64,000 nt of DNA, taken from NCBI GenBank assembly GCA_963705725.1, contig CAVPKM010000018.1:4657-68656 (forward strand), written 5' to 3'. The position numbers were made by a program, and so were the translations under genes. Under the pieces are notes generated by a model that saw nothing but the letters and a program-made list of their open reading frames with translations, made no database searches and was not told the DNA's origin. Below are positions 1 through 64,000 of this stretch, piece by piece. This DNA comes from an uncultured Gammaproteobacteria bacterium. Its GTDB lineage: Bacteria > Pseudomonadota > Gammaproteobacteria > UBA6002. How positions within the stretch are numbered: the stretch's first letter is position 1; every line of letters starts with the position of its first letter.

Positions 1-708
1 TATGTTACCGCGATGGACAGTGGAACTGATGTTAATGACATGGATATCATTGCACGAAAAAGTCATTACGTGACTTGTACCTCACAGGAAGGAGGAGGAG
101 ATCCTGCGCCCTATACAGCGCTTGGTGTTAAAAGAGGGATTGAGGCTGCCGTTCACTTCAAATTAGGCAGAACCTCTCTGCAAGGCATACATATCGCTAT
201 CCAAGGTGCGGGGCATGTTGGTTATTACTTGGCAAAAGCCTTAACTCAGGCAGGCGCTAGATTAACGATGACAGATATCAATCCTTTAAGTTTAGCGCGC
301 TGTCAACAAGAATTTGGAGTAAACGTTGTTGTCCCTGAAGATATTTACGAAGTGGAATGTGATGTATTCTCTCCCTGTGCGCTTGGTGCCGTAATCAATC
401 TGACAACCATTCCTAAAATTAACGCGTCGATTATTGCGGGATCTGCAAATAATCAATTAAAAGATATTTTACAAGATGACCAATTACTTTTTGAGCGCGG
501 CATTCTATATGCCCCGGATTTTTTAATTAATGCAGGCGGCTTAATTCATGCTGCCGCAGCTTATGATCGCGGGAATTTAGAAAACGCAGATAAGTTAATT
601 TGCGAAATTTATGACGCTAGTATGAATATTTTTAAACGTGCAAAAACCGAGAATAAACCGACACAATACATTGCTCAGATCATTGCAAATGAACGTTTAA
701 ATAGTTGA
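1..708 (+). CDS. Leucine dehydrogenase (Glu/Leu/Phe/Val dehydrogenase family), 5'-partial; the gene starts upstream of the window
   Basis: The frame is open from nt 1 (YVTAMDSGTDVNDMD...). A GAGxVG Rossmann motif is present (IQGAGHVGYYLAKAL). The C-terminal half resembles LeuDH. BCKDH genes lie immediately downstream. Confidence 0.75.
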   Translation, partial: YVTAMDSGTDVNDMDIIARKSHYVTCTSQEGGGDPAPYTALGVKRGIEAAVHFKLGRTSLQGIHIAIQGAGHVGYYLAKALTQAGARLTMTDINPLSLARCQQEFGVNVVVPEDIYEVECDVFSPCALGAVINLTTIPKINASIIAGSANNQLKDILQDDQLLFERGILYAPDFLINAGGLIHAAAAYDRGNLENADKLICEIYDASMNIFKRAKTENKPTQYIAQIIANERLNS

Positions 709-724
709 AACGTAAAGGATATCA

Positions 725-2769: not shown

Positions 2770-3890
2770 AAATTTTCAACCTCCCCGACTTGGGAGAAGG
2801 CTTGCCAGATGCTGAAATTCGAGAATGGCTAGTTAACGAAGGCGATGAAGTAAAAGAGGATCAACCCATTGTTTCAATGGAAACAGCGAAAGCGCTGGTA
2901 GATGTTCCCTCCCCCTATGCAGGTCGCATTACAAAATTTCATGGTAAGCCGGGTGACATCATTAAAACAGGCAATCCCCTAGTAGAATTTGAACAGGATG
3001 CCAATGAAGTAGCTAAGCAATCGTCTGATGCAGGCACAGTAGTTGGGAATATCGAGGTGGGACAGACTATTTTAAAAGAATCCCCAATCGGTATTGAACC
3101 GCGCACGAACTTGCAAGCAAATATTAAGGCCTCACCCGCCGTGCGGTCACTAGCAAAACAGCTGAATGTAGATTTAGACAAAGTCACGCCAACAGGCCCT
3201 GGTGGTTCAATCACGGCGCAAGACATAAAAAATGCCGGCAACCATACCCGCCCCATTGATAAGGATTATGAAGAACTGCATGGCCCAAGACGTGCGATGG
3301 CAATTAATATGGCAATGGCTCATCAAGCCGTCGTTCCTGTTACCTTGATGGATGATGCGGATATCCATCATTTTTCTTCGAATGAGGATATCACTTTTCG
3401 CCTTATTCAAGCGATGATTACCGCTTGTTTGACAGAACCAGCACTCAATGCCCATTTTAATGGTAAAAATTTAAGCCGATGTCTATTTACCTCAGTCAAT
3501 ATTGGCCTTGCAGTTGATACAGCAAAGGGCTTGTATGTTCCTGTACTTAAGGAAGCACAAACCCTATCTAAGGAAAAAATTCGGGAAGAAATCAATAAAT
3601 TTAAACAACAGGCTGAAAAACAAGAATTTGCTAAAGATACCCTGCAGGGTGCCAGTATTACTTTATCTAATTTTGGTGTTTTTGTAGGGAAATATGCCAA
3701 TCCTATTGTGGTCCCCCCCACTGTAGCTATTGTTGCCGTGGGCAAGTTAAGAGAGCAAGCAGTAGCGGTAGCAGGAAAAGTAGAAATTCACCGTATCGTA
3801 CCGATTTCTCTCACCTTTGATCACCGTGCAATTACAGGTGGAGAAGCGGCACGATTTTTGGCTGCTTTTATCAAAAGCCTGGAGGCTTAA
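2766..3890 (+). CDS. bkdB: Dihydrolipoamide branched-chain transacylase E2
   Basis: N-terminal lipoyl domain (METAKA lipoyl-Lys). Peripheral-subunit-binding domain (SPAVRSLAKQLNVDL). Catalytic 2-oxoacid DH acyltransferase domain with DHRAITGG. Confidence 0.85.
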   Translation: MKIFNLPDLGEGLPDAEIREWLVNEGDEVKEDQPIVSMETAKALVDVPSPYAGRITKFHGKPGDIIKTGNPLVEFEQDANEVAKQSSDAGTVVGNIEVGQTILKESPIGIEPRTNLQANIKASPAVRSLAKQLNVDLDKVTPTGPGGSITAQDIKNAGNHTRPIDKDYEELHGPRRAMAINMAMAHQAVVPVTLMDDADIHHFSSNEDITFRLIQAMITACLTEPALNAHFNGKNLSRCLFTSVNIGLAVDTAKGLYVPVLKEAQTLSKEKIREEINKFKQQAEKQEFAKDTLQGASITLSNFGVFVGKYANPIVVPPTVAIVAVGKLREQAVAVAGKVEIHRIVPISLTFDHRAITGGEAARFLAAFIKSLEA

Positions 3891-3915
3891 GGTCAGTTTT
3901 CTCCCTTCCGTGAAC

Positions 3916-4743
3916 TTACCGTTTGCTGCAACTTGTGGTCGCAGGAGTAGTATCATTCGAGTTTTTTGTTTTATTAGCCCTTTGCTTCTGGGTGACAATT
4001 TCTTGTAGCAAAGTTCTTGCAAATGGATAGGCTTCCAATTTCTTGTCAGTAATTTTATTAAATAGACCCACAATTGTTAAACCTTCATTATTTTTTAAGG
4101 AAGGATTGACATATTGATTAGTATCAGGCGCCGCTTTGATTAAAAAACCCGGTTTAATTCCATTTCTGCCTTTTAATAATTCAATAAGTACTAGGAATTT
4201 TGTGCTTGTTGCTTCCTTGAGAATACTAAGAATGGCATCATGCACCGGCGTATTACCAAGCTTATCTTGCACATTAATAATGTCAGGTTTTTTTTGCACC
4301 CATTGAGTACGATGAATATTATGATCTACTACTAACAAATAATTTATCGTATCTGCTGCTTCTCCTTTTACTGCACAATGAAGTGCATTTTGCCCTGTAT
4401 CAGCATCTTGAGCGGCTACCGCCATTTGCCCTAAGGTAAAGACACATTCCTTCAATCTCTTAGGATCATTGGCTTCAGCTGATTTTCTTAATCTCATTTC
4501 CGCAAGATAAATTGCTAACGATCTATCGGCATGATAGTTATTTTCTTTATAATTTTGTATCGCATAAACTGCTAATATAAAAAGGGTTAACCAACTATAC
4601 GGAGCATCTTCACTTTCAGATAAACAAGCCATCCCTGCCACCAAAAGAAACTGTAGAAAAGCGACTTGCTTAGCACGAGCTCGCTCAGTTAGGCGGTTTT
4701 TTCTTAATACCTCACCATATGTTTGCATCCGAGAACCTCTCAT
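3916..4743 (-). CDS. Ankyrin-repeat protein (eukaryotic-like; candidate secreted effector)
   Basis: Several ANK repeats (GNTPVHDAIL, GQNALHCAVKGEAADTINYLL). S/T-rich C-terminus. The true start is probably the internal MQTYGEV. Confidence 0.7.
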   Translation of the reverse strand: MRGSRMQTYGEVLRKNRLTERARAKQVAFLQFLLVAGMACLSESEDAPYSWLTLFILAVYAIQNYKENNYHADRSLAIYLAEMRLRKSAEANDPKRLKECVFTLGQMAVAAQDADTGQNALHCAVKGEAADTINYLLVVDHNIHRTQWVQKKPDIINVQDKLGNTPVHDAILSILKEATSTKFLVLIELLKGRNGIKPGFLIKAAPDTNQYVNPSLKNNEGLTIVGLFNKITDKKLEAYPFARTLLQEIVTQKQRANKTKNSNDTTPATTSCSKR

Positions 4744-4762
4744 TAAAATTTACTAGTAATTA

Positions 4763-4915
4763 TTCAGCACAGGATTGAAACGCTCATATTTTGCCACCTT
4801 CAAGCCAAAATTTAATTAAAAAGCGCAGCATACACAGGTATGTGAGCATTTTTAATTAAATTTTGGCTAAAATCTGAGCGTTTGAGCCCCTTTAGCGTTT
4901 GTGCTGAACAGTTAC
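4763..4915. repeat. Composite intergenic repeat element forming a roughly 150 bp imperfect hairpin. It has a perfect 20 bp inner stem (AGCCAAAATTTAATTAAAAA / TTTTTAATTAAATTTTGGCT, 4803-4822 and 4849-4868). Its outer arms carry the dispersed repeat-family motif.
   Basis: Direct reading shows outer arms TTCAGCACAGGATTGAAACGCTCA (4763-4786) and TGAGCGTTT...TGTGCTGAA (4875-4909). It lies between the SDR 3' end and the ankyrin gene 5' end. Related copies are at 50121-50157, 53449-53489, 18273-18300 and 17713-17748. Confidence 0.8.
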
Positions 4916-4981
4916 ATTTACTATTAGATATAAAAGCGATTAGGATAACATTTTTTATTAAAAAATAATACGTTTTAAAAT

Positions 4982-5743
4982 TTAAGCTTGCATTCTTAAT
5001 GCACCATCGAGGCGGATAACTTCACCATTTAAATAGGAATTTTCAATAATATGTGAGGCCAAATGAGCAAATTCAGCTGCTCTACCTAGCCGAGTTGGAA
5101 AAGGAATTTGGCTTGCAAGCTCCTCTTGAACTTTGGGTGAGAGACGTTCTAAGAGCGGTGTTTGAATCAAACCCGGTGCAATTGTCATGACACGAATTTG
5201 AAAACGTGCAAGTTCTCTTGCTGCAGGTAAAGTCAGGCCGCACACTCCAGCTTTCGAAGCGCTGTAACCACTTTGCCCGATTTGTCCTTCAAATGCTGCG
5301 ATAGAAGCCGTATTGATAATGACACCACGTTCTTCTTCATTTTTTAAAAGTTGCACTGTTGACATTAAAGCTGCAGTTAAACGCAGCATATTAAAAGTTC
5401 CAATGAGATTAACATCAATGACTTTTTTAAAATTCTCAAGTGGCATCGGACCATTCTTGGTCACTATTCGCTCTGCTGGAGCAATTCCTGCACAATTAAC
5501 TAACACGCGAGGTAAGTCGATACGCTGCTTTATTTCGTTAAGCGCTGATTCTACAGCTTTTTCAAGTGATACATCACACTGCAATGCTATCCCATCTATC
5601 TCTTTTGCGATCTGCGTTGCAGCAGTTAAGTCTTGATCTAATATTGCAACTTTCCCTCCCTTTTCACTCAAAAATCGAGCGGTTTCTGCTCCCATTCCGG
5701 AAGCGCCGCCGGTAATAACAATCGTTTTTCCTTTAATATTCAT
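4982..5743 (-). CDS. Short-chain dehydrogenase/reductase (3-hydroxyacyl-CoA dehydrogenase type II-like)
   Basis: TGGASGMG cofactor motif, NCAG, and S...YxxxK (YSASKAG). Confidence 0.8.
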   Translation of the reverse strand: MNIKGKTIVITGGASGMGAETARFLSEKGGKVAILDQDLTAATQIAKEIDGIALQCDVSLEKAVESALNEIKQRIDLPRVLVNCAGIAPAERIVTKNGPMPLENFKKVIDVNLIGTFNMLRLTAALMSTVQLLKNEEERGVIINTASIAAFEGQIGQSGYSASKAGVCGLTLPAARELARFQIRVMTIAPGLIQTPLLERLSPKVQEELASQIPFPTRLGRAAEFAHLASHIIENSYLNGEVIRLDGALRMQA

Positions 5744-5752
5744 ACTATTCCC

Positions 5753-6802
5753 TTAAGTCATTACCTCTTCAAGTAACTCATGATTTTCATTAATAGTGAG
5801 ACCTGCCTTTAACAGAATGCAAAGGGTAATTAACGGAAGAATGGCAATAAGGGTGATCAAGATTTCCCAGCGAGGATAAAAAATGCTTAAGATAGCAAGG
5901 GGGAACAGCCAAAATACATTAATATATTGTACCCGCAATACTACATGCCGATGACAACCCGTTTTTTTAACTGCTTGTTGAAAAGCATGACTGCGATGTG
6001 CTTGATACCAAGCTTCACCTCTTAATACCCGATGGATTAATGTCAGTGTGGCATCAACCCAAAAGCAACCAAGTAAAATCAGCCACTGCCATAGTGTCGA
6101 GGATCCCGTCATCAATGTTTCTATCAATAAAACGCCAAATATAAACCCTAAAAAACCACTACCGGTGTCTCCCATGAACACACTGGCAGGTGACCAATTC
6201 CAAATTAAAAATCCAGCGGAAACGGAGGCAAGCAATAAAAATAAAGGCAGTAAGGATGTATCTTTTTTAAGAAACAAAAGAAAAACCATGGAAATCGATA
6301 CAAAAATGGCTTCGCTACTAGCCAGGCCATCAATTCCATCCATAAAATTATAAAGATTAATTAACCAAACTAGCCCCAACAGTCCAATCATGTAGCCCAA
6401 TAGCTTCCAATGAACAACCATGAAGCCAAGATCTAAAGATGGCATTCCCCCAAATAAATACAATACCAAGGCAGCGGCCAGAAAATGAAAAAAAATACGC
6501 ACGCGAACAGCCACATGGTGGATATCATCAATTAAACCAACTAAAGCCAATAAAATGCCTCCGACTAAAAAGGAGATAAGCAGAGGTAAGCTTAGAAGGT
6601 GGCAAAGATAGAGCAGTACCACACCAAATAAAAAAGTAATGACCATACCAATTCCGCCACCAGAAGGCGTTGGCCTAGCATGCGAGCTTCGTGCATTAGG
6701 AATATCGAGCAAATGAAACCGAAAAGCTATTTTTTTAAAAAAAGAGACTAAGATAGAGGTGGCAATAAATCCTAACAAAATAATGAAAAGTGTTGTGTTC
6801 AT
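5753..6802 (-). CDS. Glycosyltransferase family 4 polyprenyl-phosphate sugar-1-phosphate transferase (WecA/WbpL/MraY-like)
   Basis: About 10 TM helices. Conserved DDxxD-like (IDDIHHV) and NxxNxxDGIDGL (NFMDGIDGLA) motifs. Confidence 0.75.
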   Translation of the reverse strand: MNTTLFIILLGFIATSILVSFFKKIAFRFHLLDIPNARSSHARPTPSGGGIGMVITFLFGVVLLYLCHLLSLPLLISFLVGGILLALVGLIDDIHHVAVRVRIFFHFLAAALVLYLFGGMPSLDLGFMVVHWKLLGYMIGLLGLVWLINLYNFMDGIDGLASSEAIFVSISMVFLLFLKKDTSLLPLFLLLASVSAGFLIWNWSPASVFMGDTGSGFLGFIFGVLLIETLMTGSSTLWQWLILLGCFWVDATLTLIHRVLRGEAWYQAHRSHAFQQAVKKTGCHRHVVLRVQYINVFWLFPLAILSIFYPRWEILITLIAILPLITLCILLKAGLTINENHELLEEVMT

Positions 6803-6822
6803 CCCGACATCACCTTACAAAT

Positions 6823-7938
6823 TTATACAACCTCAACGCGGAGTTTAATAATGTCGATCAATTCAGAAGTAATTTTTTCAATATCGCTGTCTGTTAGATA
6901 TGGATGGAAAGGTAAACTTAATACGCGTCCTGCAGAAAGTTCCGCTATTGGTAAATGGTTATAATAAGGCGCTAAATCTTCAAAAATTGGCTGTCGATGT
7001 AGCGGCACAGGATAATGAACTGCAGTTGGGATTCCCCTTTCCTGTAAAAGTTTTTGAACGTTGGTTCGATCATCAACTTGCAAGGTATATTGTGCATAAA
7101 TACTTTGATTATAGGGTTCCACATAAGGAATGGGCAGATGGGCTTTAAGTATTTCGTTATATTTATGTGCTATTCGTTGTCGCAGGCTAATTTCTTGTTT
7201 AAAAATTTCTAATTTAGCAAGCAGTATGGCAGCTTGAATAGAATCTAACCGGCTATTTAAACCCAATAATACATGATTATAACGTGTGTTTTGTCCATGA
7301 TTCCTAATTTTACGCATTTTATCAGCTAGGCAATCATCATCGGTGAAACATGCCCCTCCATCACCGTAGCAACCTAGTGGCTTAGCAGGAAAAAAACTGG
7401 TACAGCCAATCAACCCAAGATTGCAGGAAAACCGTCCTTTATAACTGGCACCAAAGCTTTGCGCCGCATCTTCGATAACAAAAAGATTATGTGCCGCTGC
7501 AATTTGATTAATGGCATCAAAATCTGCACATTGACCATATAGATTCACCGGCATGATGACTTTAGTTTTCGAAGTAATTGCTTTTTCAATTAACGCGGGT
7601 TGAATGTTATAAGTATCAGGATGGATATCTACAAAGACGGGCACTGCGCCAAGTAAACGTATCATTTCTGCTGTTGCGATAAAGGTGAACGGCGAAGTGA
7701 TCACTTCATCACCTGGCTGAATTCCAAGCGCCATCATCGCGACCAATAACGCATCTGTTCCGCTTGCAAGCGTAATACAATGCTTTGCTTGAACCGATAC
7801 TGCCAACTGAGATTCTAATTCAATAACTTCCGGGCCCATGATGTAAATGCCATGATCCAGGACTGATTTAATTCGCTCAAAAAGCGGATCTTTTATCAGC
7901 TCATATTGTTTTTTCAAGTCAACAAATTGCATCTTCAC
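6823..7938 (-). CDS. DegT/DnrJ/EryC1/StrS-family PLP-dependent sugar aminotransferase
   Basis: Fold-type I aminotransferase. Characteristic N-terminal region GPEVIELESQLA...ASGTDAL and C-terminal DegT signature. Confidence 0.85.
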   Translation of the reverse strand: MKMQFVDLKKQYELIKDPLFERIKSVLDHGIYIMGPEVIELESQLAVSVQAKHCITLASGTDALLVAMMALGIQPGDEVITSPFTFIATAEMIRLLGAVPVFVDIHPDTYNIQPALIEKAITSKTKVIMPVNLYGQCADFDAINQIAAAHNLFVIEDAAQSFGASYKGRFSCNLGLIGCTSFFPAKPLGCYGDGGACFTDDDCLADKMRKIRNHGQNTRYNHVLLGLNSRLDSIQAAILLAKLEIFKQEISLRQRIAHKYNEILKAHLPIPYVEPYNQSIYAQYTLQVDDRTNVQKLLQERGIPTAVHYPVPLHRQPIFEDLAPYYNHLPIAELSAGRVLSLPFHPYLTDSDIEKITSELIDIIKLRVEVV

Positions 7939-7952
7939 CTTAAATCTCGTAG

Positions 7953-9428
<1,476 letters not shown>

Positions 9429-9438
9429 GAATAAGACA

Positions 9439-10281
9439 ATGAGGCTTTCCATGGGGGATTGGTTGATCGAAAGAATTACGCACTGGTTGACCAAAAATCA
9501 TCCGCCCAGACGAGCATATCTTTGTGATTTTGAAAGAATTCGTTATGAACTGCGTCCTGGAGATGTGCTGTTAATTGAAGGTCGCAATCAAATTAGTCGT
9601 TTTATTCGGAAAGTTACTCAAAGTCCCTGGTCACATGCCGCGCTTTATTTAGGTCGTTTGTATGATGTCGACAATTTAAATCTTCGCAAAAAAATACAGC
9701 AACATTTTGGCGGCGCTTCTGATAGTCAATTGCTGATTGAAAGCTTAATCGGTAAAGGTACAATTATCACAGCACTCCCCCACTATCGACATGATCATAT
9801 TCGAATTTGTCGGCCACAAGGACTTTCACGCAAAGATGCACAGCTAGTGATTGGCTATGCAATTAACCGGCTTGGCGGCAAGTACGACGTTAGGCATGTT
9901 ATTGATTTAGCACGATTTATTTTACCTTGGGGATATTTCAGTCGTTGGCATTCTATTTTATTTGACCCCACCCCATCAAAAGCTGCTTATGATATTTGTT
10001 CCGCTATGATCGCAGAAGCGTTTGGTTCAGTTAAGTTTCCTATTTTACCTGTAGTAAAGCATGATGATGAAAATGGGATTGAATTAATACAAAGAAATCC
10101 CAGACTTTTTACGCCAAGTGATTTTGACTATTCCCCTTATTTTGACATTATTAAATATCCATTTTTTTCTTTATCAGAACAGCCACCCTATCACCACCTA
10201 CCTTGGAAAGAAGGCGCAGTCAGTATCGACGGTGGGAGAGATCTTTATATTAATGACAAAAAAGCCGATAAATCCTATTAA
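9439..10281 (+). CDS. YiiX/YaeF-like permuted papain-fold (NlpC/P60 superfamily) hydrolase, DUF830-like
   Basis: His-before-Cys permuted arrangement (WSHAALYLG ... YDICSAMIAEAF). Size and layout fit the YiiX family. Confidence 0.45.
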   Translation: MRLSMGDWLIERITHWLTKNHPPRRAYLCDFERIRYELRPGDVLLIEGRNQISRFIRKVTQSPWSHAALYLGRLYDVDNLNLRKKIQQHFGGASDSQLLIESLIGKGTIITALPHYRHDHIRICRPQGLSRKDAQLVIGYAINRLGGKYDVRHVIDLARFILPWGYFSRWHSILFDPTPSKAAYDICSAMIAEAFGSVKFPILPVVKHDDENGIELIQRNPRLFTPSDFDYSPYFDIIKYPFFSLSEQPPYHHLPWKEGAVSIDGGRDLYINDKKADKSY

Positions 10282-10934
10282 CGTTTCCTCGCCAAGGTCA
10301 ACCCATCTGCAATTGGAAGCATGCTAAGATCCACCCGTACATCTTGTAAAATTTTTTCATTCAAGGCATCAATTACACAAGCATTTTCATCCGTTGGGGT
10401 GATCACCCGCCCATCTTGAAAAACATTATCGATTGCGATCACCCCACCGGAACGCAGTAATTGTAAAGATAGCTCATAGTAAGTGGGATAATTTTTTTTA
10501 TCAGCATCAATAAAAATAAAATCAAAGCTGCTTGCTTCTCCTTGATGTAGTAATTCTTTTAAAGTTTCTGTCGCCTGCCCAAGCTTGAGCTCAATTTTTT
10601 GTGCTTGTTCCGCCAGCTGCCAATATTTTTTAGCCATGTTCGTCCATTCATTATTAATATCACACCCGATCACTTTTCCTTCGTCTGTCATTGCCATCGC
10701 GACAACTAAGGCGCTATAACCGGTAAAAACTCCGATATCCAAAGTCTTTTTAGCATTTAACATTTTTACCAAAAAGGCTAAAAACTGACCTTGTTCAGGC
10801 GCAATCTGCATTTTGGCTGCACTTAATCCTTTTGTTTCGAGACGTAATTGAGCAAGAATAGGATCTTCCCTCAAAGAATGGGTAAGATAATATTGATATA
10901 AACTATCCGTCATGGAAATTGTCATTCTTGACAT
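10278..10934 (-). CDS. Class I SAM-dependent O-methyltransferase (caffeoyl-CoA OMT family 3)
   Basis: LDIGVFTGYSAL SAM-binding motif and FDFIFIDADKKNY divalent-cation motif. Confidence 0.8.
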   Translation of the reverse strand: MSRMTISMTDSLYQYYLTHSLREDPILAQLRLETKGLSAAKMQIAPEQGQFLAFLVKMLNAKKTLDIGVFTGYSALVVAMAMTDEGKVIGCDINNEWTNMAKKYWQLAEQAQKIELKLGQATETLKELLHQGEASSFDFIFIDADKKNYPTYYELSLQLLRSGGVIAIDNVFQDGRVITPTDENACVIDALNEKILQDVRVDLSMLPIADGLTLARKR

Positions 10935-10983
10935 AATTTTCTCCTATTAATAAGGTACAGGCATTAATCTTTCTGAGTATAAA

Positions 10984-12252
10984 ATGAGTAATAAATCTAA
11001 GCCACTACCTAGGCCGTTATTTGACACATTAAACAGATTAGACCAGGAATCTGATTCAGGCTTGAATGATTATCTCCTAACCTTAGCTATTCCAGAAGCA
11101 ATACAAGAATACGCGCTAACCAGCGAATTTTTACGAAGTTATAGTGGTTCATCTGATACTTTTAATGCTTATAGGCGAGAAGTAGAAAGATTTTTACAAT
11201 GCGCTTGGTTACTAATAGAAAAACCAATCAAATTAATTGATCGTAATGACATACGAGACTACCTCCTATTAATTCAAAATCCACCAAAAAACTGGATTGC
11301 CACTAAAAATGTGGCCAGATTTATTATTAAAAATGGTCGGCGCATTCCGAATTCCGAATGGAGACCATTTGTAGTCAGAATTTCAAAGGTTCTTCACAAG
11401 GAAGGAAAACGTCCAGATAAAGCACAATATCAGCTCACGAATAAATCTGTTCAAGCCTTATTTGCAGGATTAAGTACCTACTTTACCTTTTTACAGCAAG
11501 AAGGTTACCTAGAAGTCAACCCAGTCCAATTAATTAGACAAAAAAGTCGTTTTATTCAAAAAGTCCAATCTCAAAAAGTTACACGAAAGTTAAGTAATTT
11601 ACAGTGGCATGTTGTCATTGAAACTATTGAAAATTTAGCGAATCAAGACGCTTTTTATGAACGCCATCTTTTTCTCATTTCTATTTTTTATTTGTTAGGC
11701 CTGCGTATTTCAGAAGTTTCTGAAACGCCTGGCAGAATACCTAAAATGGGTGATTTCAATCCTGATAAAAATGACAGATGGTGGTTTACAACAGTCGGCA
11801 AAGGCAATAAAGTACGCGATGTTGCTGTGCCAAACGCAATGCTCGAGGCTTTAAAACGTTACCGAATAAGTAGAGGTTTAACGCCGTTACCTGGCCGTAG
11901 TGAAATTTCACCGCTTATCCATAAAGAGAAAGGAAAAGGAGGGATTGGCACAAGACAAGTGCGAAAGTTAATTCAAATTTGTTTTGATCGAGCTATTTCT
12001 CAATTGCGTTTAGCAGGTAAGGAAGATGAGGCACAGGATTTAAATTTTGCAACCGTCCACTGGCTAAGACATACTGCAATATCTGCAGATGTAGAACACA
12101 GGCCACGCGAACATGTTAGAGACGATGCCGGTCATGAAAATGCAATGATTACAGATCGCTATATTGATACGGATCGAATTTCTCGTCATGAATCCGCTAA
12201 ACTGAAACCACTCAAACCCTTACTTGAGGATAATCTGGAGAAAGAATGCTAA
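10984..12252 (+). CDS. Tyrosine site-specific recombinase (phage-integrase family), with no adjacent tRNA
   Basis: Catalytic R (GLRISE), HxxR (HWLRHTAI) and Y (ITDRYI). N-terminal SAM-like domain. Its stop overlaps the start of the malic-enzyme gene. Confidence 0.75.
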   Translation: MSNKSKPLPRPLFDTLNRLDQESDSGLNDYLLTLAIPEAIQEYALTSEFLRSYSGSSDTFNAYRREVERFLQCAWLLIEKPIKLIDRNDIRDYLLLIQNPPKNWIATKNVARFIIKNGRRIPNSEWRPFVVRISKVLHKEGKRPDKAQYQLTNKSVQALFAGLSTYFTFLQQEGYLEVNPVQLIRQKSRFIQKVQSQKVTRKLSNLQWHVVIETIENLANQDAFYERHLFLISIFYLLGLRISEVSETPGRIPKMGDFNPDKNDRWWFTTVGKGNKVRDVAVPNAMLEALKRYRISRGLTPLPGRSEISPLIHKEKGKGGIGTRQVRKLIQICFDRAISQLRLAGKEDEAQDLNFATVHWLRHTAISADVEHRPREHVRDDAGHENAMITDRYIDTDRISRHESAKLKPLKPLLEDNLEKEC

Positions 12253-40605: not shown

Positions 40606-41157
40606 TTGATGAGTCAATTAATGGATGATAACAATAGAGATTCGATAGATGATGAAGAGAAAACACTTTTTCGCCAGTCACTAAAAAATGTCAAACGCTT
40701 AAAGCCACAAGGAAGAGTGATATTTAAAAAAGCACCCTCAAAAAAAAAGTCGCAAATTATTTTAAGCGATGAAAAACCGATTTTTTATCTTTCTGATCAG
40801 ATCGATGTCCCAAATGTCGCACAAGAAGAACCGCTTTATTTTGCGAGACCTGGCATTTCACCCAAACAACTCACTAAATTCAAACAAGGAAAATTATTCA
40901 TTCAGGCAAGGCTTGATCTCCATGGCTATTATCTGGAATCTGCACGAACTGAACTCCTTCACTTCTTGAACAGGGCGTACGAAAAAAATTATAAAGCTGT
41001 ATTGATTATTCACGGCAAGGGTCACGGCGATCAGCCCTTGCTGAAAAACAAAGTTAACCAATGGCTTAGGCAGCTAGAAATAGTCTTGGCTTTTTCATCA
41101 GCTCTTCCCAAACATGGGGGAGCAGGGTCGGTATATGTATTATTAAAAACAAAGTAA
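40606..41157 (+). CDS. smrB: Smr-domain endonuclease (SmrB/YfcN-like)
   Basis: C-terminal Smr domain (LDLHGYYLESARTELLHFLNRAYEKNYKAVLIIHGKG). Confidence 0.7.
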   Translation: MMSQLMDDNNRDSIDDEEKTLFRQSLKNVKRLKPQGRVIFKKAPSKKKSQIILSDEKPIFYLSDQIDVPNVAQEEPLYFARPGISPKQLTKFKQGKLFIQARLDLHGYYLESARTELLHFLNRAYEKNYKAVLIIHGKGHGDQPLLKNKVNQWLRQLEIVLAFSSALPKHGGAGSVYVLLKTK

Positions 41158-41172
41158 CTATAGTTACCAAAT

Positions 41173-43938
<2,766 letters not shown>

Positions 43939-52633: not shown

Positions 52634-53049
52634 AAAAAAATCCGATGTTCAAATGATAAAGAAAATTATACAACAAAATATTTTTGATGGAAATCAAATA
52701 AGGGTGAGGTTAAGTCAGTATGACAAACTATTCAAACCCTGCAAGGAATTTAAACTCGCAACTACTCAACACAGGATTAAAACATTTTTCTCTTTGGTGC
52801 AAATTTTTATGCCAAAACATTGCTACATAAGGTCCAAGAACAGATACATATGGAATCTTTGCCATTCGCATAAAAGTTTCTAGTTTCATGCAAAATGGAC
52901 TAGGGCTTGGCAGATTCCAAACCCGGTTGATATAGTTTTACAGTCAGATTTTTCATCAATCTACAAACTTGCAATTTAAGTATGAGAGGATGGAAACTCG
53001 ATAATCTCATTAGAATTTATATTGTATGTACCTATATTTTCTTTAGACA

Positions 53050-53398
53050 CTATTTTTTTATTGCTTGCTGAGCAAAATATTGATCACTTAGCATACAAGA
53101 AGTATATTCTTGCATTTCCTCAAAAGTCGTTTCTAAAAATGGTTTAGTCATATAAGGTGATGCACAATGTATCACTACCTCAAGGTGTGGTATTTCATTG
53201 AATATAGTAGATACCGATTCTTTCGTGTTATTCATTAAATCAAATTGAAAATTACGTTGAGTGTGAATTCTCTTTAATTTTAATACCGCTTGAAGATTAT
53301 GGAGATCTAGCAGCAGCATAAAGCTTTGCATTTCTTTCTTGAGCAACCCTCGGTAAAATTTCTCAACCTAATCCTCGATTAGCTCCGGTGACCAGCAT
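53050..53398 (-). pseudogene. Short-chain dehydrogenase pseudogene (N-terminal about 115 codons, disrupted by a stop and frameshifts)
   Basis: MLVTGANRGLG is followed by a stop. In a second frame: EILPRVAQERNAKLYAAARSP, then a stop. In a third frame: LDLHNLQAV...LEVVIHCASPYMTKPF. It is truncated before the catalytic S/YxxxK. Confidence 0.55.
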
Positions 53399-53448
53399 AT
53401 AAAACTCTGATGCTTTATATAGTATAATTTTTCCTCTAAAAAAAAATC

Positions 53449-53489
53449 TGAACGTTTAGCGACTTCTAGCGTTTCTGCTGAATAATTAC
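53449..53489. repeat. Dispersed intergenic repeat copy (TGAACGTTTAGCGACTTCTAGCGTTTCTGCTGAATAATTAC)
   Basis: Same architecture as 4875-4915 (TGAGCGTTT-GAGCCCCTT-TAGCGTTTGTGCTGAACAGTTAC). Confidence 0.7.
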
Positions 53490-54028
53490 AATAAAATTTA
53501 AGTAATTATTTTCAGGTATAGTTATTAGAAAAGCGGATACCATGATCTGTTCATATACTAATATCAGCTGGCACAGTTATTAAATAACAAATAATGTCGT
53601 TAAATCTGGCATTAGCTTTCTCATCGTTATCAGCTTCTTCAATTAAAGTAGAAAATAATTCATAGTAATTCTTTGCCAGTTTATTATCTATACACTGAAA
53701 ATAAAAAAATATTATTCAAGCAACTAAGCACAATGTTAATTCTGTAATTGACACGAATAAAATCTATAATAGGCCAGTCACTTTAATTGGCATAGTTTCG
53801 GTGGTGTTGTGATCAGTCAAGTAGCCGAACGAATACCTGAGCGGATTAAAGAATTAATTTACATGTGTGCTTTTATCCTTCCCAACGATTATACCATAGG
53901 CCACATCATTCAAGATGTCGGGGTTTATTTCATCGCTTTGCAATGAATTCATCTTTGATATGTGCACTGATGTAAAACCGTTCAACTCAAATAACGTAAT
54001 GATTGACTCATTTTTGATAAAAAATTTA

Positions 54029-54325
54029 CTACATTTGATTTTCTACGCTTTTAATTCTGTCTTTCATGCTTTCAGTTTTATCGGTACGACTATTTATCTT
54101 AATATTAGTCACCAAACGTGGAGCACCTAGCTTGTGTACTGCTTCAATACAAGATTTTATTGCATCAAGAACCTCATTGTAATCGCCTTCTATATTGGTT
54201 CCTTCCGCATGTAATTGAATAACTAACCCTTTATTTTTTAGAATACGTTCACATTCCGCGATGTATTTTGAAAAAGACACCCCTACACCTATAGGGATAA
54301 TTGATAATTCAACGATGATTTTCAT
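54029..54325 (-). CDS. MTH1187/YkoF-family (UPF0045) thiamine-binding-like protein
   Basis: MKIIVELSIIPIGVG...LHAEGTNIEGDYNEVLDAIKSCIEAV...GAPRLVTNIKINSRTD matches the family profile. Confidence 0.65.
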   Translation of the reverse strand: MKIIVELSIIPIGVGVSFSKYIAECERILKNKGLVIQLHAEGTNIEGDYNEVLDAIKSCIEAVHKLGAPRLVTNIKINSRTDKTESMKDRIKSVENQM

Positions 54326-54405
54326 ATAAAAATTCTCCAATTAATTAAATTTCTATCAACCTTTCACACAAGCTAACGCTTTTAAAAAAGTAACACGGCG
54401 GGTAA

Positions 54406-54804
54406 TCACACTAATTCACTTAATTCGTCCCTAACCGCATCCAAACCAGATTGAGCACATAACTCATCCAATTCAGGTGTTGCCCCACTAATCCCTATGC
54501 TACCTATGTGTTGACCATCTTGAGTGATAATGGGTAAACCACCACCGAGTAGCAGAATATCAGGTATTGCACTGTAAGGATTGGCAGCCATTTTTGAGCT
54601 TCGCTCTGCTAACGTTTTTGATGATAGTGGCATACTTGCAGAAGTCTTTGCTTTAAGTTGAGAAATCCTAATACTTCCATAACTAGTGTTATCCATGCGC
54701 TGAAAATATTTAAGATTGCCGCCATTGTCATAAATACTAATAACGATATTGATCTTGTTTTCGATAGCTTTTTTTTCTGTTGCTAGCGCTATTTTTTTTG
54801 CCAT
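54406..54804 (-). CDS. GlcG/HbpS-like (DUF336) protein, possibly N-terminally truncated
   Basis: LTLDMAKKIALATEKKA...NIVISIYDNGGNL...RISQLKAKTSA...LLLGGGLPI...IGSIGISG. The frame is open upstream with no ATG start. Confidence 0.55.
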   Translation of the reverse strand: MAKKIALATEKKAIENKINIVISIYDNGGNLKYFQRMDNTSYGSIRISQLKAKTSASMPLSSKTLAERSSKMAANPYSAIPDILLLGGGLPIITQDGQHIGSIGISGATPELDELCAQSGLDAVRDELSELV

Positions 54805-55106
54805 ATCCAGCGTTAGTGTTTTTTTAAAATTGTCATAACCCCCCTGATTTTAACTCACCTAGTATTCGCCCTGCCCTACACAATGACTTTCCAGTCATTA
54901 ATATCATTAACCTATATCATATCAGAAAGCCCCCAATAACATCATTTTGAGATAATTTTCATTGAATATCTCAAAGCAAAGTAGATATGTCACCATCCTA
55001 AGATACTTTGTTACCTCAAGCAGTTATCCCTAGGTCCCTTGAGGTTTCAGGAACAAAAATCGAGAAGTAAAAAGGTTATAAAGCTTTCTTAAAGTGCATA
55101 TGCGAT

Positions 55107-55199
55107 ATGAATATGATATTGAACAAAGATATATTAGTTGCTGGATTACGTTCTCGTGATGGAGCATCATATCAAATACTGCAGAATATCCCGAACTGA
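55107..55199 (+). pseudogene. ECF sigma-factor region-2 remnant
   Basis: A 31-codon fragment (MNMILNKDILVAGLRSRDGASYQILQNIPN) matches the DxxLVxxxxxGDxxAYxxLxxxY region-2 signature and is followed by a stop. Confidence 0.25.
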
Positions 55200-55495
55200 A
55201 AAATAAAATTGGTTATCTCTGTGACTCTTTTTATAGAATATGAATCGGTTTTAGAGCGACCCAGCTTTTTTTCAGACTCACAGAAAAGATGTCGATGCGA
55301 TTTTAAATATGCTGGGTTCAAAAGCGATTAGAACCCCCATTCAGCAAAGGGTTGAAACGTCCATATATTGCCGTCGGACTGTTTTTAGGTTAAAAGTTTA
55401 GTTGTAAAATATATTTTTTTCTTGGATATTTTAATATCTTTACGATATTATGATAATATTTAACGCGGAAAGTATCTAGATTAAAAAAAGCAGGC

Positions 55496-55972
55496 TTGTT
55501 AAGCAAGGAGACTATTGCAATTATTACTCGTGCTGCCCTGCTAACCTCAGCCGTTACGTTGCCTTTATTTACTGAAAGCTTGATCACGATAAATCAGCGT
55601 CTTACTGTGAGTAAGTTAATGATAGAGTATCTATTATCTAATGTGAATCTATCCACTTTAGTGACAAAATCTCTTCTTCGACTTAACCAGTTTTCGATTT
55701 GCACTGATCAGAATATTGAAATTTTGTTAAATCAACAGACTCACCCTCAAGAATTGACTAATTGTTTTGAAAAAATTATTAGCGATCATCTCGAAGAAGC
55801 TAGGTTGTATAATGATATGCAAATCAATTCTCTTGCACCAAAAGACGCCTGGACAACGATTTTTAGTTTTTTTGATAATAATGAGAAATTAAATTTAAAA
55901 AAGGTATCAACCCTGTTTGAACAAATTGCCAATGAACCTGATCATGGAAACAGCACTCAGAATAGAACTTAG
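55496..55972 (+). CDS. Hypothetical protein with a possible F-box-like motif (eukaryotic-like)
   Basis: LAPKDAWTTIFSFFDNNEKLNLKKVSTLFEQI resembles the F-box consensus LPxEiLxxIfsyLdxxdLxxlxxVcKxW. Confidence 0.3.
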   Translation: MLSKETIAIITRAALLTSAVTLPLFTESLITINQRLTVSKLMIEYLLSNVNLSTLVTKSLLRLNQFSICTDQNIEILLNQQTHPQELTNCFEKIISDHLEEARLYNDMQINSLAPKDAWTTIFSFFDNNEKLNLKKVSTLFEQIANEPDHGNSTQNRT

Positions 55973-56209
55973 GATCATGCACAAAATAAATATGGATTTT
56001 TAGGCTAGGAGATTTTTAATATTATCCAAATTTCAACAGAAAACTTAGAACTAAAATTTCTATAGAAGAATAATGAGCGTATAATATTTCAGTCCATTAT
56101 GAGAAATATGGCACTGGGCAAACAATGCGATCCCCTTCTCATAAAAAGTTTGCGCTCTTAGCGGTTCGAGTAATTTAAAACTCATGCTAAGAAAAATCAC
56201 AGGTGAAGA

Positions 56210-59072: not shown

Positions 59073-59378
59073 TTATTTAACTACAACTCCTATATTTTGG
59101 AATTCCATAGCTCCAGTAAAATTTATTAAAATTTCTTTCTGCTTTTCTTTAGATACCAGTGTTCCATCATCCCATTTTACGAATGCATTTGAGCTAACTA
59201 TTACACAAAATCTACCGTCTGATAAACGCCCATAATCAACTTTCAATGGATTGGCATTTATTTCCTTCTCGATATTCAATTTTAAATCGGGCAACAGATT
59301 GAACTATAAATCCTTTACTACTTTTTACACCTTGCTTATTTATCCATGTAAACATTTCTAACACTTCTTTTAATTAAT
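59073..59378 (-). pseudogene. Cassette gene c1, frameshifted paralogue of c2 (61243-61551)
   Basis: The C-terminal ORF 59073-59294 (…DGRFCVIVSSNAFVKWDDG…KQKEILINF) aligns to c2 (…DARKWILVSNGIKFELVHDD…SEQLVLEI). The N-terminal part lies in another frame at about 59295-59378 (GFIVQSVARFKIEY ~ VTFSVVNDWDSFDKLVTF). Confidence 0.45.
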
Positions 59379-59520: not shown

Positions 59521-59808
59521 TTAAGAAGCCCAACAAGTTTTATCTGGAAGCTCGCCGTTTTTCCAATGCTTTATTATTGCTAATATTGCTCGCTGGATAT
59601 ACATACCCTTATCTCCTTCCGCAAGCTCCACAATGTCAACATCACCAGTGGTTTTGTTAATTTTAACTCTGCCCCGCACCAATTTTGATATCCCTCTTAA
59701 CCTACCCGCTGCATTTTTAATAGGCTCAGTGGGTAAATTAAATTCGTACACATAATAAACAAAACCTTGCTGGTCAATATCTTTATATAGCTCAATAGAA
59801 AATGCCAT
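59521..59808 (-). CDS. Cassette gene b1, a small protein of unknown family with C-terminal HWxxGExPxKTxWAS
   Basis: 95 aa. Paralogue of b2 (61684-61971) across the full length (roughly one third identical). Its ATG directly follows the TAA of a1. Confidence 0.5.
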   Translation of the reverse strand: MAFSIELYKDIDQQGFVYYVYEFNLPTEPIKNAAGRLRGISKLVRGRVKINKTTGDVDIVELAEGDKGMYIQRAILAIIKHWKNGELPDKTCWAS

Positions 59809-59991
59809 TTATGGCCTCAAGCTCATTGTAGATGTAGTTACAAACTCATCAGGATTCCAAGTCCGACTTGAGAGATTTGAGGCATTATGAGTTATATAAT
59901 CGTTTTTAAATAATATTTCCAACCTAGTTTCGAAATATTCGTGTTGTAATAGCTCGATATCTTGTTTAACAAAATTACCTTTCTGCCTCAT
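59809..59991 (-). CDS. Cassette gene a1, a small protein of unknown function
   Basis: 60 aa. Its C-terminus SSRTWNPDEFVTT aligns with a degraded copy upstream of b2 (TGRIWNLEKFIT). Confidence 0.4.
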   Translation of the reverse strand: MRQKGNFVKQDIELLQHEYFETRLEILFKNDYITHNASNLSSRTWNPDEFVTTSTMSLRP

Positions 59992-60189
59992 GCGTCAGCA
60001 TTTTCTATATATGGAGCAAATCAATTTAGACCGGTAGAAAGCTGATGTACATCAAAAAATAAATGTTGCTTAATACGTTAGATTTTAAAATCTTTCATTA
60101 GCTTCGGTTGCTAACTCTCACAAAGCAGTAAAGCTTGTGAATTAATTTCTTCCAGGCCACTTGGATAGATAATATCAATACTCTTTAAT

Positions 60190-60429
60190 TCATTTTTTAT
60201 TTTCATACCATCCTTCACGAAAAGCCTGATCAGATATTTTTAAAACCCAACTCTGCCCACATTTAATGCATTTATATTGTAACTCAATAAAAGGACTCTT
60301 AGGCTTAATTTCACCTAGCTTAATCAAAATATCTTCTTTTATCAAAACATGAATTCTATTAGCAAATTTTAAATAGATTTCTTCAGTTTTAAATGGACCT
60401 TTTTTTAAATTACAAAATATACAACTCAT
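60190..60429 (-). CDS. Small CxxC...CxxC zinc-ribbon protein (P3), last gene of a three-ORF overlapping operon
   Basis: SCIFCN ... CIKCGQ. Its start overlaps the P2 stop (ATGA). Confidence 0.45.
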   Translation of the reverse strand: MSCIFCNLKKGPFKTEEIYLKFANRIHVLIKEDILIKLGEIKPKSPFIELQYKCIKCGQSWVLKISDQAFREGWYENKK

Positions 60430-60711
60430 TTTTTTAACCTATAAACATACACATCTTCAATCGAAACAGGTTCAATTAAAAATTGTGGCGAATGTCCAGA
60501 ACCTGCATTTGGATATGAATTTGTAAATGGCTCGTAACCAATTTCAACATTATAACCAATCTGTTTTTTTTTGCCTTGCCATGCGGTAATGTACTGTGCG
60601 CCGTCTGCGTTTTGGTTGCTCTCTTGGACCCATATTAATCAGAATGTGAGCTGCTGCTTTTTGAGCTGGACCTAAATCTTCGCATAATAATATGTTAATG
60701 GATTTATTCAT
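60426..60711 (-). pseudogene. Small protein P2, interrupted by a frameshift in a T9 homopolymer (plus-strand 60564-60572). With 8 T it would be a 94-aa protein.
   Basis: Frame A (60550-60711) encodes MNKSINILLCEDLGPAQKAAAHILINMGPREQPKRRRRTVHYRMARQKK... Frame B continues ...KKQIGYNVEIGYEPFTNSYPNAGSGHSPQFLIEPVSIEDVYVYRLKK to the stop at 60426. Its start overlaps the P1 stop. Confidence 0.4.
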
Positions 60712-60988
60712 TCATACATTTCGATAATTTATACCCAAGCTCAGTAAGTTCTGTGCAACGTTTAAATATTGGTTTATCCCAATCCATGCTTTCTAGACAA
60801 AATCTATCTAATAAAATAGTAGCCTTCTCCACACTACCTGAAGTATTTGCATTAATTATATTTTTCAAATAGGTATTAAGATTATTTATCAAATACCATT
60901 CCAAGCTTTCAGTTTGAGGAAATGTATTTTTAAGGTCATTAATATATTGCTTAATTTTACTCATTAATTCTATTTTACTAATATTCAT
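60704..60988 (-). CDS. Small hypothetical protein P1 (94 aa), first gene of the P1-P2-P3 operon
   Basis: ORF with no recognisable domain. Tight overlap with P2. Confidence 0.35.
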   Translation of the reverse strand: MNISKIELMSKIKQYINDLKNTFPQTESLEWYLINNLNTYLKNIINANTSGSVEKATILLDRFCLESMDWDKPIFKRCTELTELGYKLSKCMNE

Positions 60989-61242
60989 AATTAATAACCA
61001 TATTCATAGTATTTCTCGGCATCATTATTTCATTAAATTTATATTGACCTAGTGGTCCTAATAAAAATTTTTGCATTTCCCCTTCAATCAGTCCTGGACT
61101 AAATCTTAACTGTGGAGCAAACTTAACCTTTACATTTGAATTAATACACAATTCTTCATTTAAGAATGCAGGGTCTCATTCTGGTGATGGCACTACCATT
61201 GGTGGTTTAAAAGAGTACCAAAATTATTAAAAACAGCGATAT

Positions 61243-61683: not shown

Positions 61684-61971
61684 TCAAGAAGCCCAAGTAG
61701 TTTTCTCTGGAAACTCTCCTGTTAGCCAATGTTTCATTAATGCCCAACTGGCTCTTTTTGCATGGTTGCCTTGATCACCTTCAGCAAATTCAATCACATA
61801 GACATCTCCTTTTAGCTTATCTAGTTTTAAAATTCCTGAGACTAATTTTGATTTAAATCTAATTTTACCGGTAGAAGATTTGTATTGATCCCCAGGAAGC
61901 TTAAATTGATATTTGTAATGAATAAAATACTTGTCTTCTTTCATTTTGATTACCTCCACATAAAATGCCAT
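61684..61971 (-). CDS. Cassette gene b2, paralogue of b1
   Basis: MAFYVEVIK...HWLTGEFPEKTTWAS; start taken at MAF. Upstream of it (about 61972-62090) is a frameshifted a2 remnant (FESRFEGIFKTD / NGLITAHEAANDTGRIWNLEKFITQFGMCWKK). Confidence 0.5.
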   Translation of the reverse strand: MAFYVEVIKMKEDKYFIHYKYQFKLPGDQYKSSTGKIRFKSKLVSGILKLDKLKGDVYVIEFAEGDQGNHAKRASWALMKHWLTGEFPEKTTWAS

Positions 61972-63334
61972 ATTATTTTTTCCAGCACATTCCAAATTGC
62001 GTTATAAATTTTTCTAGATTCCAAATTCTTCCTGTATCATTGGCTGCTTCATGTGCAGTAATTAGTCCGTTTTAAATATACCTTCAAATCTTGATTCAAA
62101 TCTGAGCCAAAAGAAAAATTGCGATGATGCAAGGAATATTAAACACTATCCACACAATTTTCATTTATTACATACTTAACTTCTTTTATATTTATTGGCT
62201 TCTCTATAATAGAAATTTCTAATGGATAGATGTCTAGATTCCTTGAAGACAAGAGTCTATTAATTATCGCTTCTCCTATGACTTTTTTGTCTGAATTTGC
62301 TAAAAAAATAAACTTCTTGGAATTTAGCATTGTTAAATAATCAACACTTACGATTATTATCCATGAATTAAAAACAAATAACATTTCATTTCAGGAATAA
62401 ATATCGACACTTTTTTTTAACATCTCTTCATTATCCCAATTGAATATCTTATGGTGTCTATACATAAAGTCTCTTACATGCCATTCTCTAAAGACAGTTG
62501 TCTCAAAGCTTGTATGTGAATTCCCCAAATTTTAGATTGAACACCATGAAGCAACTCTTCTACAATAGTTAATCTAGGATTTCATTTTAATAATAATTGA
62601 TAAATTATCAGGCCCTCCTGCGGCTGCATCAGCTTTTACCATTTCTAAAAATCTAAGATTATCAGAACCTGGCTGAGAATATAAATATCGCTTTTTTTAA
62701 AAATTAATTCCGTCTAACTTCTAGACCAAGCTGATCGCACCACTTATCCTACATTTAATCAGTTAGCTACCTCTCTTGGCCGTGATGGATTGAAAGACAG
62801 CGTATTAGATTATCCTTATGCCCTTTGCTAAGCGAAGAAATATCAGGCCTAATGAAGGGAAATTTCTAAAATATCTCACTTCGCGTTTAAAATTAAAGAC
62901 GAGATTGTTTAAAAACTAGGTGCTTTATCAAAAGCAAATAATCTGGCTGCAGCAGGCATGCAAGCTACTTCAAAGGATAACAGGGATTCCCGAACTCAAA
63001 CCCTACTACTTGAATATCTTGATTTGGAGCTTAAACAAGAAGTCCTTAGTAGTTATTCTGAAATAAAACATCGGTTAATAAATAAAACTACTTGTCAACA
63101 AGATATTTTATATCTCTATCGCAAATCAAAAAGCGCAACCAAAGTCAAACCAGTTATCTAAAGCAAAGCCTGTACTTTTTCTGAAAACTATATCGGGCAG
63201 CGAAAAGGATATGTACCCAGGCAACGGGTGAAATTCTGGCAAACTCGTCAATAACCTCTTGAGAAGCGCCTTCCTGAATCATTTTCTTATAAACAGTCAG
63301 AACCGGACAAACTACTTAATTAGACATAGATCAC

Positions 63335-64000
63335 CTATAGTTTTGTTTGTAACAAATTTTGGCTCGATAAGCTATTAACTTTTTCTTCTAGAAATTTAGA
63401 GATAGTAGTCCTTTGCTTTCTAAAGCCAGCTTTTCTATCAATTGGATCTAGTTTATCCTCTTCTTTTAAATTCCTATTCATTTCACCAAATATTTCCTTA
63501 AGTTCTTTGTACTGAGCTTCTGACATTGTTATTGCAAAAGGCGCAATAACAAATCTTAAGCCCGTCCGAAATCCATAGGTACTAGATCGTAAACTTGCCC
63601 AACTGTGATATATAAGAGAATCCTGATTTTTAGCCTGATCAAAGTATTCCATGAATAATTTTTTATAATTGGTAGAAATATCCAATTGTTTCATGTTAAG
63701 TGTTAAATCATCTTTCTTATCTGATCTTTTCCATTGGATGACTTCTTCTAATTGATTAATAGAATGCAATAATTCACTGATCTGTGGATTATCCTCATTG
63801 CCTATTTTTAATGGGAACCCAATTGCCATTAATCTTTTTTTATTTGGATTACCTTTATGATTAAATTCAAATACAGTGTGAATTTCGCCATCAAACTTTT
63901 CGCCATCTAAATCATATTCATTCTCTTCACCATCTTTTTCAAAATGAATATGTGTGTGCTGTAAGGTATAGTCAGCGCCGCGGAAATGAACTCGCGTATT
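63335..64000 (-). CDS. Alpha-class carbonic anhydrase-like protein (eukaryotic-type), 5'-partial; the gene starts beyond the window end
   Basis: The frame is open from nt 64000. YTLQHTHIHF...GEENEYDLDGEKFDGEIHTVFEF aligns to the alpha-CA zinc-ligand region SYRLIQFHFHWG...[21 protein letters not shown]. Confidence 0.6.
   Translation of the reverse strand, partial: NTRVHFRGADYTLQHTHIHFEKDGEENEYDLDGEKFDGEIHTVFEFNHKGNPNKKRLMAIGFPLKIGNEDNPQISELLHSINQLEEVIQWKRSDKKDDLTLNMKQLDISTNYKKLFMEYFDQAKNQDSLIYHSWASLRSSTYGFRTGLRFVIAPFAITMSEAQYKELKEIFGEMNRNLKEEDKLDPIDRKAGFRKQRTTISKFLEEKVNSLSSQNLLQTKL

Follow-up and report, generated by a model that had tools for sequence, protein, structure and literature searches.

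We examined a group of small minus-strand genes at positions 60190-60988 of a 64,000-nucleotide (nt) stretch (hereafter, the window) of contig CAVPKM010000018.1, which belongs to the assembly of an uncultured gammaproteobacterium of the lineage UBA6002 (GCA_963705725.1). An earlier note on this DNA had described three chained open reading frames (ORFs), P1, P2 and P3, linked by ATGA-type start/stop overlaps, with P2 continuous only if a run of nine T residues (T9; A9 on the coding strand) is read as T8. Their coordinates and lengths are as described, and so is the ATGA at which the P2 stop meets the P3 start; P1 and P2, however, overlap by 8 nt (ATGAATAA) and not through an ATGA. As a plain fact of the sequence, deleting one base does fuse the frames: the ORF of 53 amino acids (aa) that begins P2 then runs into the downstream frame and yields 94 aa ending in VYVYRLKK and a stop codon. 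The set of three was incomplete, in that one flanking ORF overlapping the P1 start and another overlapping the P3 end had gone unlisted (Table 1). At threshold, P1, P2 and P3 had no match in Pfam, NCBIfam or PADLOC, and their neighbours had none either. Toxin A and toxin B in Table 1 denote two domains that form the C-terminal ends of large proteins elsewhere and of which pieces lie next to P1 and P3. The window was compared with 18 other loci, among which L001-L003 and L011-L017 are P1-type loci and L005-L010 and L018 are P3-type loci.

Table 1. Features of the locus and its surroundings, in window coordinates.
Feature	Positions	Strand	Description
P1	60704-60988	-	94 aa, intact; predicted immunity protein for toxin A
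53-aa ORF (N-terminal part of "P2")	60550-60711	-	residues 1-46 at 60573-60711
P3	60190-60429	-	79 aa, intact, four cysteines; predicted immunity protein for toxin B
Toxin A vestige ORF	60978-61151	-	homology at 60999-61124 (42 aa); stop overlaps P1 start by 11 nt
Toxin B vestige	60426-60563	-	last 45 codons and stop, without a start codon of its own; stop overlaps P3 start (ATGA)
Third cassette gene stub	60111-60206	-	about 30 aa; overlaps P3 end
T9 homopolymer	60564-60572		A9 on coding strand; exactly at the start of detectable toxin B homology
Neighbour module 1	59521-59991	-	60-aa ORF (tail, 59809-59991) abutting a 95-aa gene (59521-59808)
Neighbour module 2	61684-62071	-	tail-like stretch at about 61976-62071, then a 95-aa paralogue at 61684-61971 (ATG at 61971)
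Gene X	59073-59364	-	two overlapping frames matching one 105-aa gene directly after the P1 homologue in L012

A protein search found a relative of P1 (P0003, 61% identity). In L001-L003, 3 nt separate the start of P0003 from the preceding stop codon of a large truncated protein, whose final ~45 residues share homology with the window ORF at 60978-61151. Scanning metagenomes with a P1 alignment added seven further loci (L011-L017, 44-56% identity). In all ten, the P1 homologue begins at the end of a toxin A-bearing protein, and the 11-nt overlap between toxin A stop and P1 start that is seen in the window recurs in L011-L014, L016 and L017. In L011, L012 and L017, the toxin A-bearing protein spans 2002 aa or more, and that of L011 passes the Pfam RHS_repeat model (23.7 bits against a cut-off of 22). 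The toxin A tail of the window is 55-62% identical to its counterparts in L001-L003, L011, L014 and L015 (tblastn). Of the 172 positions in a local hidden Markov model (HMM) of the toxin A domain, the window matches 124-165 and no others (50.4 bits). Since these were the only positions matched and P1 follows toxin A in all the loci, P1 is a conserved downstream partner of toxin A, of which the window keeps only the last 42 aa. In L011 and L014, the P1 homologues are followed by classical orphan modules or arrays.

The second toxin piece lies within what had been called P2. Word-indexed protein searches gave just self-matches for P2 and P3, and relatives of toxin B were reached only by exhaustive phmmer: corrected P2, searched against 1.8 billion representatives, returned P0006-P0010 (E 1e-7 to 1e-4), which align by their extreme C-termini to P2 residues ~50-93. 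When the toxin B domain was modelled as a local HMM of 170 positions, the window aligned to no more of it than positions 126-169, and the aligned part lies wholly 3' of the A-run; by tblastn, the same tail matches L005-L010. Even the corrected P2 lacks about 125 of the 170 domain positions, including the invariant motifs YVFRYLSE.GL and RGY[ST]TT. The N-terminal half of P2 had no homologue among the 1.8 billion representatives (phmmer). Against the toxin B profile, the 45-aa tail alone scored 53.1 bits; the corrected P2 (A8) scored 52.3 bits, a value equalled with shuffled upstream sequence in 62 of 200 trials, and the uncorrected reading in the same frame (70 aa) scored 53.5 bits, equalled in 39 of 200. 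P2 therefore does not stand as one gene or as a family of its own, because its homology is confined to the last 45 codons 3' of the A-run and the upstream part adds no score in either frame.

Two candidate extensions of this homology were rejected. A BLASTP alignment with P0008 crosses the A-run and reaches residue 37 through a Y-x-h-A-R match, but we do not regard it as significant, given that neither frame gains profile score and that shuffled sequences do as well. A match to P0005 (3125 aa, 12 stretches, E 8e-17) was dismissed as a chance resemblance that a tandem Ig/PKD-like repeat had multiplied. With a GC content of 44%, the 131 nt that separate the P1 stop from the A-run (60573-60703) differ from the adjoining segments (26-32%); this stretch had no Rfam match, showed no RNA structure on folding and matched no plasmid DNA or protein. 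What precedes the A-run in the 53-aa ORF is likely to be junction or filler sequence and not a gene. As far as sequence comparison goes, the best reading of "P2" is that a toxin B stub lies against an unrelated 53-aa ORF and that the one-base fusion is a coincidence.

Scanning genomes with a toxin B alignment found the domain in Sedimenticola, a gammaproteobacterial metagenome-assembled genome, Massilia, Cupriavidus and Legionella lytica, which together with a metagenome contig make up L005-L010. A 2132-aa gene, which has a faint precomputed RHS_repeat match, stands upstream of toxin B in L005, as does a 2812-aa protein in L008. P0006 of L005 overlaps by 4 nt with the next gene, whose 77-aa product is 45% identical to P3 (E 1e-20), and a P3 homologue (34-49% identity to P3 across L005-L010) starts at the toxin B stop in each of the six loci, with the same CC/CG-ATGA junction. 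The two CxxC pairs noticed earlier in P3 are indeed present (C3xxC6 and C54xxC57): C3, C54 and C57 are invariant across the family and C6 occurs in six of seven sequences, a pattern that fits a four-cysteine zinc ribbon. A DQA.R motif is likewise invariant across the family, and P3 of the window keeps every invariant residue. Zinc-ribbon models of Pfam matched the P3 family only below threshold. Pfam Imm27 was matched, also weakly, by two of seven family members (best E 0.019; 14.8 bits and E 0.027 for the L006 homologue, against a cut-off of 27.3) and not by P3 of the window. The homologue of L. lytica has an altered first cysteine motif (CxC) and a W74C change.

In L005-L009 and L018, the P3 homologue is succeeded by a third gene, about 137 aa long. 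Its N-terminus is still recognisable in the window, where MKIKNELKSIDIIYPSGLEEINSQALLLCES aligns with the N-termini of the third genes of these loci and the similarity ends at the window's stop codon. L018 (an unannotated record of Vibrio campbellii LJC015, 2-Mb replicon, 7992-8595) pairs a P3 homologue with a third gene and has no toxin B domain nearby; this pair lies downstream of phage-tail- or baseplate-like genes, beside other small ORFs. The L. lytica locus (L010; strain DSB2004, contig00002, 145-11517) holds a 2096-aa Rhs protein with RHS_repeat (E 1e-86), LysM and a Pesticin C-terminal domain, and the small-ORF array behind this gene contains a 29-aa start-less toxin B tail, with a stop codon directly before the tail and a P3 homologue after it. 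The array also has a tail-like ORF (containing RGGETQYF) and a 98-aa gene. Long orphan-module arrays occur in L007 (9944-15992) and L009 (7128-12942), in which the toxin B/P3/third-gene cassette is one unit of many, and the array modules open with a conserved junction, VVPN/VVPD in L007 and IAFGNALG in L009.

Signs of what the two toxins do are faint. Toxins A and B had no detectable relationship to each other (hhalign probability 0.3), and profile searches of the PDB gave no match for either. TNT (PF14021) matched one of seven toxin A sequences with an E value of 0.12, which is a weak hint only. The structure model of the toxin B domain had a mean predicted local distance difference test score (pLDDT) of 59.8, and its top Foldseek matches, CC0527, KptA and TreTu (E at least 0.055), give only a weak hint of an ADP-ribosyltransferase (ART) fold. 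The single-sequence model of P3 was of low confidence as well (pLDDT 67), and Foldseek against the PDB returned nothing significant for these two low-confidence models.

We read the region, with a probability of roughly 80%, as a patchwork of vestigial Rhs-type polymorphic-toxin cassettes with orphan immunity genes, and not as a three-gene operon. In cassette A, the final 42 aa of the toxin A domain would precede the intact immunity gene P1, and cassette B would comprise the last 45 codons of the toxin B domain, the intact partner P3 and a 30-codon stub of the third gene. Both toxin pieces are homologous to the C-terminal domain of large RHS-repeat proteins, and the small gene directly downstream has a conserved pairing with its toxin (10/10 loci for P1 and 6/6 for P3). 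The toxins themselves have been deleted down to stubs that are unable to be toxic. To judge from what is known of Rhs and contact-dependent inhibition (CDI) systems, the small gene that overlaps the toxin stop in full-length loci would be co-translated with the toxin and neutralise it in the producer; P1 and P3 may persist here as orphan immunity genes and could still shield the cell from competitors that deliver toxin A or toxin B. The stub and P3 homologue of L. lytica, as an independent vestige, support the vestigial-cassette reading.

Strict translational coupling of P1, P2 and P3, as had been proposed, is thus not what the locus reflects: P1 and P3 belong to two different toxin systems. 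The earlier note had suggested looking for P1-P2-P3 synteny in related genomes, and homologues of P1 and P3 never co-occur in the 18 other loci examined. The tight overlaps are inherited ancestral toxin-immunity junctions and not a sign of mutual coupling. The accompanying hunch of a toxin-antitoxin-like or defence locus was right insofar as P1 and P3 are conserved small genes directly after toxin domains, although phage-defence models were unmatched.

Several observations weigh against the vestigial-cassette reading. Similarity to an Rhs core is absent anywhere in the 64-kb window, and the next upstream ORF is carbonic-anhydrase-like. At 42-45 aa, the stubs fall far short of the length of classical orphan toxins, and the conserved pre-toxin region is missing from them. 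The reading accounts neither for the origin of the GC-richer 131-nt stretch nor for the coincidence of A9 with the boundary of toxin B homology. The immunity function predicted for P1 and P3 follows from their position, by analogy with known systems, and neither matched a curated immunity family at threshold; as to what toxins A and B do, the ART-fold and TNT hints are weak. Finally, the third gene is conserved, so that P3 is perhaps not the immunity protein, or not the sole one.

This last point leads to the alternative that the ~137-aa third gene is the immunity gene and P3 an accessory or regulatory zinc-binding partner, in which case cassette B would be wholly dead and the intactness of P3 incidental. 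Such a view gains from the presence of the third gene after P3 both in L005-L009 and in the toxin-less Vibrio locus, and from the CxC and W74C changes of the L. lytica homologue, which may indicate decay. We nevertheless consider it rather unlikely, since the immunity gene stands immediately after the toxin in characterised Rhs/CDI systems (PMC3967940), the ATGA overlap with the toxin stop is kept in all six loci, P3 of the window has lost none of its invariant residues, and two independent vestigial cassettes, those of the window and of L. lytica, retained P3 and lost the third gene. That the ORFs are spurious products of AT-rich non-coding DNA, as the lack of Pfam or NCBIfam matches and the self-only word-index search of P3 could suggest, has a negligible chance of being true: full-length homologues of P1 and P3 (34-61% identity) occupy conserved positions in many loci that span phyla, which excludes for these two the spurious-ORF outcome that the earlier note had allowed for, although the 53-aa ORF taken alone may still be of that kind.

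The remaining alternatives turn on the T9 run. Runs of A9 or T9 are not enriched in the window, with 6 found against 16.5 +/- 5.4 expected from dinucleotide shuffles. Three others lie in-frame within long intact ORFs (smc and the ORF at 40606-41157), and about 55 other genes of the window are intact. The Logan assembly of ERR10755948 (contig L004) is identical over 1905 bp, including A9, but may share the same reads. The numbering of its contigs points to a metagenome, so that the window probably belongs to a metagenome-assembled genome. One gene points the other way: zipA, which is essential in gammaproteobacteria, is split into overlapping ORFs (43393-43938 and 43184-43420) where a short T-run near 43465-43475 has apparently lost 1 nt, the junction reading gataaaatacttttagcc where the expected protein would read KDKILFSLAAAN. 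This split is either an assembly indel or a real frameshift, and its occurrence in the same window (at about 43470) makes assembly indel errors possible. T9 could thus be a homopolymer error for a true T8, which would leave an uninterrupted 94-aa chimeric ORF, itself still a non-toxic remnant; given the Logan assembly, the in-frame runs and the intact genes, we think this improbable. It would in any case leave the functional reading unchanged, because about 75% of the toxin domain is missing, and for the same reason the length of T9, whether set by mutation or by error, has no functional consequence for a toxin.

Much the same evidence bears on the original proposal, in which P1-P2-P3 would be one translationally coupled operon and the 94-aa P2 a genuine protein switched at A9 by slipped-strand or transcriptional slippage. 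The overlapping ORFs, the fusion of the frames by a 1-nt deletion and the BLASTP alignment that crosses the A-run with P0008 favour it. Set against these are an N-terminal half with no homologue among the 1.8 billion representatives, a corrected reading that does not raise the profile score, P1 and P3 families that are unlinked elsewhere, a Legionella lytica counterpart that is a 29-aa stub with a stop codon directly before it, and the under-representation of A9 runs in the window; we hold the operon to be very improbable. A phase-variation switch at T9 likewise loses its basis, since the run lies in or at the edge of a fragment already without about 125 of the 170 domain positions. An equally far-fetched variant is that a slippage-dependent chimeric mini-protein (53-aa ORF, A9 and toxin B tail) keeps the part recognised by P3 and acts as a switchable decoy or regulator of the orphan immunity gene; if true, this would be a new use of a toxin vestige. 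The wider lesson for method is that juxtaposed cassette remnants can mimic a chained small-ORF operon with a homopolymer "frameshift", and that homologues are needed before an operon or a phase switch is called.

The locus lies within a low-GC island (~58.8-62.4 kb) that holds more tail and small-gene modules of the same make-up. The two 95-aa genes that flank the locus are 46% identical, and each has a homologous tail of ~30 aa ahead of it: over its final 31 aa, the 60-aa ORF shares 39% identity (E 9e-7) with the sequence immediately before the paralogue at 61684-61971. These tail-and-gene pairs look like two more toxin-tail and immunity modules of an unnamed family. The earlier note had spoken of two cassette copies; the 95-aa genes are indeed paralogous, but they have diverged and share no DNA repeat. 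No repeat of 30 nt or longer was found in 58.6-64 kb, and the cassette copies are thus diverged paralogues. Gene X matches the 105-aa gene of L012 (6306-6623) in two frames, with 87% identity over 38 aa and 63% over 41 aa; it is a frameshifted pseudogene, parted from P1 by cassette B and the 60/95-aa module. A scan for promoters and terminators gave no informative signal.

Between the island and the carbonic-anhydrase-like gene, about 0.9 kb (62400-63330) has stops in all minus-strand frames and no sizeable ORF, and may be degraded sequence. The carbonic-anhydrase-like gene occupies 63335-64000 on the minus strand and runs off the end of the window; the 164-aa ORF listed there is the C-terminal part of this longer frame, which matches alpha-type carbonic anhydrases (Pfam Carb_anhydrase, 27.8 bits against a cut-off of 27). 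Elsewhere in the window, 52650-56200 is gene-poor, with short ORFs only, between a nadC-like gene and a LysR regulator region, and might hold further pseudogenes.

Orphan rhs-CT/rhsI modules downstream of main rhs genes are well described, for example at STM0292 of Salmonella Typhimurium (Koskiniemi et al. 2014, PMC3967940). The window resembles them in its start-less toxin 3' ends, each with a cognate small immunity gene directly after it, in the succession of several unrelated modules, and in the C-terminal position of the homologous toxins within full-length RHS-repeat proteins elsewhere. It differs in that the toxin pieces lack the catalytic bulk as well as the pre-toxin region, and in having no main rhs gene within the 64 kb. 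A classical rhs orphan keeps a complete toxin domain and usually some of the conserved region, and can therefore be brought back into use by recombination, whereas the window retains only positions 124-165 of the 172 of toxin A and positions 126-169 of the 170 of toxin B. Because both the catalytic bulk and the conserved pre-toxin region are missing, recombination with a main rhs gene cannot return the stubs to use, and the absence of an Rhs core, together with the carbonic-anhydrase-like upstream ORF, shows that the region is not an array of the classical type, which lies behind a main rhs gene. The orphan cdiA-CT/cdiI modules of CDI systems also consist of displaced toxin tips with linked immunity genes, but the full-length relatives of the window toxins carry RHS repeats and not CdiA/FHA repeats.

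Type II toxin-antitoxin operons share with the window small overlapping pairs in which one gene neutralises the other. However, the window has no intact toxin, its order is toxin then immunity gene, the relatives of its toxins are C-terminal domains of proteins of more than 2000 aa rather than stand-alone small toxins, and P1, P2 and P3 matched no toxin-antitoxin family and nothing in PADLOC. A further parallel is offered by immunity islands, of which the acquired interbacterial defence clusters of Bacteroidales are an example. Orphan immunity to Rhs NADase effectors is described for Serratia (PMC10539506). As in such orphan immunity genes and islands, the predicted immunity genes of the window are intact without a functional cognate toxin and would presumably resist the toxins of other strains; unlike in those islands, the families of P1 and P3 are unnamed, and no integrase or recombinase-associated structure was seen. 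The type of locus is therefore one already known, as Rhs orphan modules and orphan immunity genes, and what sets this instance apart is that its protein families are unnamed and its toxin stubs unusually short.

With this assignment, two unannotated small genes, P1 and P3, become candidate immunity proteins and are linked, along with a third, accessory gene, to two unnamed Rhs C-terminal toxin domains, and the pairings of P1 with toxin A and of P3 with toxin B are each conserved across several Proteobacteria. A Legionellales-like genome that keeps immunity genes without a visible cognate toxin fits the view of orphan immunity as a defence in interbacterial competition.

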